Below, in pieces: positions 58,682 through 60,837 of a stretch of 64,000 nucleotides of DNA; the first letter of the stretch is position 1, and each line of letters opens with the position of its first letter. Location of the stretch: the NCBI RefSeq assembly GCF_044324875.1, contig NZ_CP172185.1; one strand, written 5' to 3'. This DNA comes from Escherichia coli. GTDB lineage: Bacteria; Pseudomonadota; Gammaproteobacteria; Enterobacterales; Enterobacteriaceae. Made by a program: the position numbers and the translations under genes. The notes beneath the pieces are model-generated. The model searched no databases. It had not been told where the DNA came from and saw only the letters and a program-made list of their open reading frames with translations.

Positions 58682-60769
58682 TCAGAACTGATAGTTCAGC
58701 GACATCCAGTAATTTCTCTCAGGTATCACATAACCCGTTGTCGATGCCCCCGTCTGGAAGTAATCACCCGCATAAAGCGTACCACTGCCGGCACGATACA
58801 GACTTACGTCACTGTAATCCTTGTTAAGCACATTATTCACCGCTGCATTCAGCATCAGTGCATCCGTCACTTTCCACGACATGCCCGCATCCAGTACCGT
58901 CCAGGCTTTCAGATATTCACCTTTCTCATCATACACTTTCTTCTGTACAGCTGAGAGTGACGAATAATTCTGGGTGAAACGTGGCGTTTTCCCGCGGTAA
59001 CGGGCACCCAGCCATGATGTCACCTCTTCAGTAATCTGCCAGTTCAGTTTCGCATTCACCATATGCTCAGGGGTGTAACTCAGTGGTGCACCTTTATTAT
59101 CCCCATCCCGTTGTTCACTCTGCGTCCAGGTATAATTCAGAGACAGAGTCACATCCTCTGACAACAGAGGCAGTGTGCCGGCAAATTCCACGCCCTGAGT
59201 CCTAGCCTTTCCGCTGTTTGTGTAGCTGCGGGTATTATCATCAATGGAATAAGATACGATCTTGTTGGAGAATTCTGTCATAAAGCCCGTGATATTGGCG
59301 TTCAGACCGGCATGATTATCGTAATACACGCCCGCTTCATAACTGACACTCTCCTCCGGCTTCAGGTCCGGGTTACCGAGAAGATTCGTACGCCCCTGAC
59401 CGGACACACCGCTGATCCCCTTATGTAACTGCCCCATGCTGGGCGCCTTATATCCCGTGGTCACCCCACCTTTCAGCGTCCACGCATCAGTCACATCCCA
59501 GACCATATATGCCCGGGGACTGAAGTGTCCTCCGAACACCTCATAGCGTTCATAGCGGCTACCCGCAGTCAGTGCAAATGCATCCGTGATATACCACTCA
59601 TCCTCAACAAATGCCGACCAGCTTTTCTGACGGAAGGTTTCACCAGTACTGGCGAGAACAACCCCGTCTTTCATGGAGGAGTTCTGATACTCACCACCGA
59701 CGGTAACCTTGTGTGATTCCCCCAGAGGTGCAAACAGTAATGAGCTCAGGATAAGATTCGACTCCTTAAGCTCCCTCGGCTGGCCGGCAAGCCCCCATTT
59801 ATCACGCTGCAGTACGCTACGTACAAGCTGACGGCCTTTATTTTCCGTCTCATTCCAGTTCAGGGATGACTTCCAGGCTCCGAAGGTGAATGTATGATCA
59901 TAGCCTGCTGAAATTTTATTACGCTCATAGCGCAGGGTGCGATCATAACCGCCCGTCAGACTGCCCAGCTGGCCATCTCGGTTATCATAACGCTGCCGGG
60001 CGATATCCATATCAATCCAGAGTACATCCTTGTCCGTCGCTTTCCAGTCAAGACGACCACCTGCATTATAATTCTGTGATTCCGTGGGATAAGGGATACG
60101 CGTAGCTGAGGTGTCGCTCAGTGATGTGACCGATGAGCCCTGACGCTGCTGTGTGCTGCCACGTACCTGAAGGCTGAGTGAATCATCCACAAGGGGACCG
60201 CTGCTCCAGAAATTAAACTGGCTGCTGTTCCCCCATTTGTTACTTTCCTGCAGGTTCAGCCCGGCATTAACCGAAGAGCGCCATTTGTCTGCATTCTTTT
60301 TGGTGATGATATTCACCACGCCCCCCATGGCATCAGAGCCGTACAGAGTGGACATGGGGCCCCTGATAATCTCAATACGTTCGATGGCGGCCAGAGGTGG
60401 CATAAAACCCGTATTCATGGCAGCATAACCGTTTGGGGTTACGTCACTGCTCCCGCCCTGACGGACACCATCGATCAGTATCAGCGTATAACTGGCAGGC
60501 ATTCCGCGGATGCTGATTTCCAGCCCACCTGTTTTACCCGTACCGCTTTCAACATCCACCCCCTCTACGGATCTCAGTGCCTCCCCCAGATCATGATACT
60601 GGCTGGATCGCAAATCCTCCTGGCTGATCACTGAAACACTCGCAGCTGCACTGGTTAATTTTTTTTCATAGCCAGACGCCGTGACTACCATCACATCTTC
60701 CGCAGCCATACTGCTGACTGAAAACCCGAGACAAGGGATGGCTACTGAAGCCAGAGTGGTTACTCGCAT
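58682..60769 (-). CDS. iha: TonB-dependent outer-membrane siderophore receptor (IrgA/Iha-like)
   Basis: 695-aa ORF with signal peptide, plug-domain motifs and C-terminal aromatic residue (…NYWMSLNYQF); size and N-terminus recall Iha. Confidence 0.55.
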   Translation of the reverse strand: MRVTTLASVAIPCLGFSVSSMAAEDVMVVTASGYEKKLTSAAASVSVISQEDLRSSQYHDLGEALRSVEGVDVESGTGKTGGLEISIRGMPASYTLILIDGVRQGGSSDVTPNGYAAMNTGFMPPLAAIERIEIIRGPMSTLYGSDAMGGVVNIITKKNADKWRSSVNAGLNLQESNKWGNSSQFNFWSSGPLVDDSLSLQVRGSTQQRQGSSVTSLSDTSATRIPYPTESQNYNAGGRLDWKATDKDVLWIDMDIARQRYDNRDGQLGSLTGGYDRTLRYERNKISAGYDHTFTFGAWKSSLNWNETENKGRQLVRSVLQRDKWGLAGQPRELKESNLILSSLLFAPLGESHKVTVGGEYQNSSMKDGVVLASTGETFRQKSWSAFVEDEWYITDAFALTAGSRYERYEVFGGHFSPRAYMVWDVTDAWTLKGGVTTGYKAPSMGQLHKGISGVSGQGRTNLLGNPDLKPEESVSYEAGVYYDNHAGLNANITGFMTEFSNKIVSYSIDDNTRSYTNSGKARTQGVEFAGTLPLLSEDVTLSLNYTWTQSEQRDGDNKGAPLSYTPEHMVNAKLNWQITEEVTSWLGARYRGKTPRFTQNYSSLSAVQKKVYDEKGEYLKAWTVLDAGMSWKVTDALMLNAAVNNVLNKDYSDVSLYRAGSGTLYAGDYFQTGASTTGYVIPERNYWMSLNYQF

Positions 60770-60818
60770 ATCTTCTCTCCGATTATATTAATCAGAGAGA
60801 AGATAAACAAACGCAAGA

Positions 60819-60837
60819 GATAATGAGAATGATTTGC
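60819..60837 (-). promoter_or_regulatory. Candidate Fur box upstream of the TonB-dependent receptor
   Basis: GATAATGAGAATGATTTGC, about 14 of 19 matches to GATAATGATAATCATTATC, 50-70 bp upstream of the start. Confidence 0.5.

Follow-up and report, generated by a model that had tools for sequence, protein, structure and literature searches.

This study concerns iha, a gene for a TonB-dependent outer membrane receptor, in a 64,000-nucleotide stretch of Escherichia coli DNA (contig NZ_CP172185.1), which we call the window. The gene lies on the minus strand near the 3' end of the window. The genes of the window follow an order like that of SCU-115: the ast operon, xthA, ydjXYZ and ynjA, then a P4-type integrase gene, and after it an island of mostly pseudogenised cargo and insertion sequence (IS) debris. 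The cargo comprises lipopolysaccharide-modification genes, an iron ABC transporter and transposases, and the island ends with the genes TIGR03756 and TIGR03757 (both with internal stops), an intact iha, a small hypothetical gene and an IS630 element. No tRNA gene was found within the 64-kb window.

An earlier note, made from the sequence letters, had described the receptor gene as island-borne and as one of the few intact genes of its island. The wealth of IS elements and the P4-type integrase next to ynjA bear out the former, and the latter agrees with the near-identical SCU-115 region, in which most neighbours are annotated as pseudogenes. The open reading frame (ORF) listing confirmed an intact receptor gene, beginning with ATG and encoding 695 amino acids and a stop, with no internal stop. 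The interval that had been assigned to it, 58682-60837, holds as gene plus putative operator, but 60837 is the far end of a Fur-box-like 19-mer and not the end of the gene. The minus-strand orientation, the divergence of the allele lineage and the decayed integrative conjugative element (ICE) around the gene go beyond what had been described.

Family assignment and protein architecture

The only NCBIfam model that the 695-amino-acid receptor passed was the equivalog NF010012 (PRK13486), with 1538.7 bits against a cutoff of 924 and residues 1-695 aligned to profile positions 1-696. BLASTP against Iha of EDL933 (WP_001223350.1) gave a collinear, full-length alignment with 628 of 696 residues identical (90%) and a single one-residue gap, the window protein being one residue shorter. 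Megablast of the gene against 5426 complete E. coli genomes retrieved it at an identity of at least 99% in 59 of them, and RefSeq labels all of these iha, 'bifunctional siderophore receptor/adhesin Iha'. Model, identity and RefSeq name thus agree with the likeness to Iha that had earlier been read from the N-terminus and the size of the protein. Iha of EDL933 and of uropathogenic E. coli (UPEC) shares with the window protein not only the NF010012 assignment and the RefSeq name but also the signal peptide, TonB box, plug and barrel, and its gene likewise has a promoter Fur box and a Shine-Dalgarno sequence and is carried on mobile elements or islands.

Two kinds of receptor might be misread as Iha, namely the housekeeping catecholate receptors CirA, FepA and Fiu, and IreA of extraintestinal pathogenic E. 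coli: these are the closest other families, Cir is the top solved structure by sequence as well as by fold, and the CirA, FepA and IreA models reach significant E-values. Every such model nevertheless remained under its curated cutoff while NF010012 was passed; the scores below cutoff were 483.8 against 1200 for CfrA, 398.5 against 1197 for IreA, 330.7 against 745 for CirA, 268.4 against 493 for the FepA subfamily and 73.8 against 686 for Fiu. Moreover, identity to Cir is only ~29%, and the gene lies in an IS-rich, integrase-bounded island adjoining ynjA and not at the normal locus of a housekeeping receptor. We thus regard such a misreading as next to impossible. IrgA of Vibrio cholerae is an iron-regulated TonB-dependent enterobactin receptor. 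The two 'ligand-gated channel' models NF010010 and NF010038 scored 472 and 458 bits, under their cutoffs of 927 and 942, and the window Iha therefore belongs to an orthologous group distinct from those families; the name Iha goes back to homology with IrgA (PMC6920203).

The architecture of a TonB-dependent transporter is complete, with signal peptide, TonB box, plug, 22-strand barrel and C-terminal aromatic residue (...NYQF), as the signal peptide and barrel features recognized earlier had led one to expect (Table 1). In the signal peptide, a cleavage site between SMA and A is predicted, no lipobox precedes Cys13, and residues 1-25 are disordered in an AlphaFold2 (AF2) model. Each residue of the TonB box pairs with one of ETMVVTA, which stands at the mature N-terminus of the colicin I receptor Cir (2hdf), and Pfam PF00593 (TonB_dep_Rec_b-barrel) covers residues 221-647 (E = 6.2e-65). 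The AF2 model, built with 37 homologues as input, reached moderate confidence (mean pLDDT 69.9, pTM 0.75), and in it 22 barrel strands come after a plug. Its top solved structure in Foldseek was Cir (9nn6; TM 0.77/0.84), followed by FepA, PfeA and PirA, and a sequence search of the PDB was concordant, with Cir as the best match (E = 6.9e-79). CirA/Cir (2hdf, 9nn6) and FepA/PfeA thus share fold and clade with the window Iha, and their TonB box and plug align with it, whereas in overall identity, family cutoffs and locus they differ from it as described above.

Table 1. Positions in the window of iha, of the parts of its product and of the adjoining elements.
Feature	Position	Strand	Basis
iha coding sequence, divergent allele	58682..60769	-	ORF listing, NF010012, RefSeq naming, comparison with EDL933
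Signal peptide, residues 1-22, MRVTTLASVAIPCLGFSVSSMA followed by AED	60704..60769	-	read off the translation
TonB box DVMVVTA, residues 25-31	60677..60697	-	alignment to Cir 2hdf
Plug, residues 39-151	60317..60655	-	Pfam PF07715, E = 2.5e-27; AF2 model concordant
22-strand beta-barrel, residues 164-695, C-terminal Phe	58685..60280	-	Pfam PF00593, AF2 strand list
Shine-Dalgarno GGAG, 7 nt ahead of ATG	60777..60780	-	sequence; kept in AR_0089 and EDL933 alleles
Fur box candidate, GATAATGAGAATGATTTGC on plus strand, GCAAATCATTCTCATTATC in gene orientation	60819..60837		15/19 consensus, conservation
Candidate sigma-70 promoter: -35 TTGTAA 60867-60872, 17-nt spacer, -10 TAAAAA 60844-60849	60844..60872	-	predicted
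Conserved 5' flank of iha cassette	60770..60883	-	blastn against AR_0089 ICE (L003); alignments with EDL933 and others
GC-rich hairpin ~40 nt past stop codon, without U-tract	58609..58641	-	RNA fold -28.4 kcal/mol, z = -2.08
Pseudogenised ICE conjugation genes TIGR03757 and TIGR03756, next to iha on its downstream side	55633..57828	-	95% identical to AR_0089 ICE

Upstream region and predicted function

The Fur-box-like sequence that the earlier note had placed just upstream of the gene stood up as a motif. The 19-mer GATAATGAGAATGATTTGC occurs once in the window, 50-68 nucleotides upstream of the ATG (60769-60767), and the exact string was present in none of 100 shuffles. It agrees with the classical Fur consensus GATAATGATAATCATTATC in 15 of 19 positions, the top match in the 64-kb window, and such a match is uncommon locally (56 of 5000 dinucleotide shuffles of the AT-rich 312-nucleotide intergenic region). 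We aligned the 200 nucleotides preceding the start codon at five loci, namely the window, the ICE of AR_0089, EDL933, a homologue on a colicin plasmid and one in Citrobacter freundii. The 19-mer was the sole well-conserved non-coding block across these diverged iha-family loci, and in gene orientation it reads GCAAATCATTCTCATTATC in the window, ACTAATTATTCTCATTATT in the AR_0089 ICE, ATAAATTATTCTCATTATT in EDL933, GCTACTGATTCTCATTATT in the colicin-plasmid homologue and GATAATTATTTGTATTATC in C. freundii. Upstream similarity between the window and EDL933 is lost past about -125. This conservation footprint is stronger evidence for the putative Fur box than the match count.

With the candidate sigma-70 promoter, the Fur box would span about +1 to +19, and the TTGT.. 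and TGTAAAA blocks of this promoter are also found in the upstream regions of AR_0089 and EDL933. At the other end of the gene, the 3' limit of homology with the ICE copy (58609) falls at the GC-rich hairpin. Divergent from iha on the plus strand, and past the end of ICE homology at 60883, lies a 94-amino-acid ORF (61082-61366) that RefSeq lists as the hypothetical protein WP_000370415.1 and that had no NCBIfam hit. At classical iha loci (L002 3880-4062, L010 256-462, L012 388-570) RefSeq annotates a hypothetical ORF of ~60 amino acids that overlaps the start and promoter of iha on the opposite strand; it carries no annotation at the window-type allele and is probably an annotation artefact.

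Classical Iha acts both as an adhesin and as a siderophore receptor, transcription of its gene rises in iron-poor Dulbecco's modified Eagle medium (DMEM), and deletion of the gene lowers adherence as well as growth under iron limitation (PMC3064760). For its role as a catecholate receptor the same paper credits Leveille et al. 2006. By homology, the window gene would behave in a similar manner. Under iron-replete conditions Fe2+-Fur would bind the 19-bp operator (60819-60837), at or just downstream of the promoter, and block transcription, while under iron limitation iha would be derepressed and the pre-protein exported through its signal peptide. Iha would then insert in the outer membrane as a 22-strand barrel occluded by the plug, its extracellular loops would bind the ferric catecholate siderophores enterobactin and its linear dihydroxybenzoylserine (DHBS) breakdown products, and TonB would engage the DVMVVTA box and energise import. 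The 90% identity to EDL933 Iha, together with catecholate receptors as the nearest structural relatives, points to this uptake of enterobactin and DHBS. Furthermore, surface-exposed window Iha may aid epithelial adherence, as classical Iha does. Direct regulation of iha by Fur is, by its title, the topic of Rashid et al. 2006, which PMC11509540 cites.

Several observations weigh against this reading. The 15/19 match is not significant window-wide (0.24 sites expected per shuffled window, and at least one site in 21 of 100 shuffles). A strict consensus scan of the gene strand upstream returned zero sigma-70 promoters, and the proposed -10 (TAAAAA) is weak; a terminator scan downstream of iha returned no intrinsic or canonical terminator, only the hairpin without U-tract. 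ICE-derived upstream sequence stops 114 nucleotides before the ATG, so regulatory input from further upstream could be lost. The AF2 model is of only moderate confidence. Finally, 67 residues differ from the tested Iha proteins, so ligand range and adhesion could differ as well. Taking both sides together, we consider the window ORF to be iha, a functional allele encoding an outer membrane TonB-dependent transporter, and we assign a probability of roughly 0.88 to this reading as a whole, including Fur repression, catecholate uptake and possible adhesion.

The family to which the gene belongs, the way it is regulated and its occurrence on islands are known already, and RefSeq calls these exact sequences Iha. 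Iha counts among the established virulence and fitness factors of enterohaemorrhagic E. coli and UPEC and is a vaccine-candidate iron receptor, and recognition of iha at this locus is therefore correct annotation and not discovery. It leaves the understanding of how Iha works unchanged.

Divergence and selection of the allele

The window gene is 86.4% identical in nucleotide sequence to iha of EDL933, with dS 0.61, dN 0.051 and dN/dS 0.08 (synonymous and nonsynonymous distances by the Nei-Gojobori method), and the divergence is even along the gene. Other matches in the complete E. coli genomes comprised 1536 records at 80-90% identity and 20 at 90-95%. The three subtypes iha-EDL933, iha-LAA/LPA and iha-pO113 share 91-94% similarity (PMC6920203), and membership in one of them corresponds to ~98-99% nucleotide identity to a reference. 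For the window allele the identities were 86.4% (EDL933), 86.0% (LAA type) and 85.2% (pO113 type), and it thus lies outside the three subtypes used in subtyping by polymerase chain reaction (PCR). Among themselves, the published subtypes differ by dS 0.20-0.35, and the dS between window and EDL933 is two to three times as large. In a neighbour-joining tree, the alleles of the window, SMS-3-5 and AR_0089 formed a clade that is sister to all classical alleles; the SMS-3-5 allele differs from that of the window by one synonymous change.

The colicin-plasmid (76% identical) and C. freundii (73% amino acid identity) homologues fell outside the iha alleles in this tree. The PRK13486-type receptor of the C. 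freundii complex (P0017) resembles the window Iha in its length of 695 amino acids and in having the Fur-box-like GATAATTATTTGTATTATC at the same position, but it occupies a stable chromosomal site by an SBP_bac_5 ABC transporter, is not mobile, and is separated from the window gene by saturated dS. The E. coli homologue on a colicin contig (L008 6001-8088) has retained the Fur box, and next to it are genes for colicin M, for a pore-forming colicin (along with the immunity gene) and for a YebF-like protein; the contig looks like a ColBM-type plasmid.

The dN/dS ratio relative to the ICE allele of AR_0089 was 0.14, and since all pairwise values lie between 0.07 and 0.14, every lineage is under purifying selection. 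A mosaic or recombinant origin of the allele was rejected: in sliding windows against EDL933 neither identity nor dS varies much, and the nearest relative does not switch along the gene. Between the window and ICE alleles, the 3' third is more alike than the rest.

We placed the 67 residues that differ from EDL933 Iha on the topology of the AF2 model. They make up 6.1% of the predicted extracellular-loop residues but 11.6% of those in strands (Fisher p = 0.047), and of the 48 changes that are fixed in the lineage relative to the four classical alleles, only 4 fall in loops. Hypervariable surface loops had been expected from immune, phage or colicin pressure; the reverse was seen, on a medium-confidence model and at p = 0.047. 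The data weakly suggest that the ligand- and host-facing surface of Iha is conserved. That the predicted loops are the part most alike between the window protein and classical Iha bears indirectly on the possible role in epithelial adherence. If true, loops more conserved than strands, which is unusual for an exposed outer membrane receptor, would indicate a constrained host- or ligand-binding surface.

These results also bear on whether the gene might encode an Iha-family transporter of shifted specificity, for another catecholate or a non-siderophore substrate, or one that has lost adhesin activity, and so acts as a generic TonB-dependent receptor. The 67 substitutions, the long separate evolution implied by a dS of 0.61, the distinct carrier element, a bias towards poultry hosts and the occurrence of remoter relatives in other contexts (the Citrobacter chromosome, the colicin plasmid) would all fit such a change. 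However, substitutions are depleted precisely in the loops, dN/dS is 0.08 with no stretch of relaxed or positive selection, and the Fur box has been kept. A shift of this kind is thus unlikely, and we retain the reading of a functional, classical-type Iha.

Carrier element, distribution and detection

blastn aligned two blocks of the window with the ICE of AR_0089, 55633-57828 (95%) and 58609-60883 (93.5%). Since ICE homology ends at 60883, the element has been cut 114 nucleotides upstream of iha and the promoter block has been left in place. AR_0089 carries a sister allele (94.8% nucleotide identity; WP_024210527.1, 95% amino acid identity) in an intact ICE of the SPI-7/PFGI-1/ICEclc type that adjoins tRNA-Ser, and it shares with the window the order iha-TIGR03757-TIGR03756, the promoter block and the 3' boundary. 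The genes of this ICE encode ParA, the SPI-7-type DnaB (DnaB-PI), ParB, the STY4528, PFL_4669 and STY4534 proteins, topoisomerase III, a single-stranded DNA-binding protein (SSB), PilL, TraD, the TIGR037xx set, a conjugative ATPase and TraG. In contrast, of a complete ICE gene set the window retains only TIGR03757 and TIGR03756, as two stop-bearing pseudogenes, and it therefore holds an ICE relic and not an ICE. The TIGR03757 match lies on the ORF 57470-57748, and for the counterparts of both genes in SCU-115 and SMS-3-5 the annotation records internal stops. Within the AR_0089 ICE, iha sits between the conjugative ATPase with an adjoining ORF and TIGR03757/TIGR03756, a junction common to 23 complete genomes. 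In the related ICE of strain C5 (L014 8958-11716), a DUF1187 gene and ~2 kb of other DNA occupy the place where AR_0089 (L003 7459-10623) has iha. That the cargo of this interval varies between related ICEs points to an insertion hotspot for cargo within the conjugation gene cluster.

The interval between iha and TIGR03757 measures 781 nucleotides in the window versus 386 in the AR_0089 ICE, so the segment 57944-58237 within it is either additional inserted DNA or what is left of a gene. It holds a minus-strand ORF of 97 amino acids with weak similarity to the GrxA family (32.7 bits against a cutoff of 84), in which the motif reads CPSV and the second Cys is missing.

These comparisons indicate that the divergent iha lineage travels as cargo of SPI-7/ICEclc-type ICEs, and that the element has decayed in the window while iha and its 114-nucleotide promoter region have been kept whole under purifying selection. 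The gene could instead be a silent relic, its ORF intact by chance in a decaying island and unexpressed after truncation of the element, as the pseudogenised ICE genes next to it, the IS elements flanking it, the end of ICE homology 114 nucleotides upstream and the failure to detect a strong consensus promoter or terminator would allow. Yet the gene is intact and at least 99.8% identical in 59 genomes from varied hosts while its neighbours have decayed, it occurs at two or more chromosomal sites (ynjA and pheV), and dN/dS against the ICE-borne sister allele is 0.14. Moreover, the 114 nucleotides keep the Shine-Dalgarno sequence, the Fur box and the TTGT../TGTAAAA blocks, which make up the sole upstream sequence common with expressed classical iha. 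Silence of the gene is thus very improbable. With retention of a functional gene as the preferred account, iha in the window shows clearly how a cargo gene can outlast the ICE that carried it.

The carrier also sets the window apart from classical iha loci: there it is the tellurite-resistance islands OI-43/48, GI-pheV of UPEC, LAA/LPA or pO113, whereas here it is an ICE remnant at ynjA. SMS-3-5 aligns to the window between 54.8 and 64 kb only, and does so within its pheV island. The module of iha plus ICE remnants is thus present at two chromosomal sites, ynjA and pheV, in different strains. In the 92-kb pheV island of SMS-3-5 (L001 15379-22470) the module consists of iha, TIGR03757 and TIGR03756, with an IS66 element between TIGR03757 and iha. 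None of the complete genomes in the collection covered over 89% of the last 25 kb of the window.

The 59 records with the gene came from chicken or chicken meat (~31, several of which are re-depositions of one genome), humans (16), pigs (2) and black kites (2), with the rest unspecified. A donor search with an exact lineage-specific 28-mer in one genome per GTDB species found nothing, and a degenerate motif search of the same set returned a single contig with an EDL933-type iha; neither search turned up the lineage in a representative outside E. coli. That contig, JAIJJM010000249.1 (4.4 kb), belongs to a 'Collinsella sp.' metagenome-assembled genome serving as GTDB species representative and carries iha at 99.95% identity (L013 998-3085); the contig almost certainly comes from E. 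coli and owes its place in an actinobacterial genome to a binning error.

Common iha primers mismatch the window allele, and in one pair, confirmed through perfect matches to EDL933, the mismatches include the 3'-terminal base of both primers. The 'general', LAA and pO113 primers of PMC6920203 likewise mismatch it. PCR-based prevalence of iha, especially in poultry isolates, may therefore be underestimated.

Taken jointly, the window and AR_0089 alleles could represent a fourth, unsubtyped iha lineage that is separated from all classical alleles by about as much again as separates those alleles, is cargo of an ICE hotspot, became 'domesticated' when the ICE decayed, is enriched in poultry, is likely under-detected by PCR and has loops more conserved than strands; as a whole we put this forward tentatively, as somewhat short of an even chance. 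The literature searched contained no prior description of the allele lineage, its ICE linkage or the ICE decay, which is not proof of absence.

Further observations concern the island and the collection. At ~45141-47505 (found via L004 18142-20506) lie the pseudogenised remains of an importer of the iron ABC type, namely part of a solute-binding protein, an ATPase with a frameshift and a permease that is truncated; the island has thus seen another function in iron uptake decay, while iha is intact. Relative to SCU-115, an IS21-family element (istA/istB, ISEc12-like) has inserted at 47723-50363, where it clips the 3' end of a PhoX-family phosphatase gene, so that a 661-amino-acid ORF (50242-52227) runs into the IS, and ~1.3 kb of IS3-family sequence not in SCU-115 lies in the ydjY region (33848-35156). 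Identity to SCU-115 is 96.5% in the core segment 25689-33848 and 99.5-99.9% inside the island, so conservation is higher in the island than in the chromosome beside it. Seven genomes (TUM9803, TUM1886, 24A16CRGN010, PKF4, PKF11, CM2 and VTB96933v) each have two places matching the gene, and may carry the window-type allele plus a classical iha or iha fragment. Some other genomes have only an iha 3' fragment of ~420 nucleotides (88% identity), adjoining a phosphoethanolamine transferase gene.

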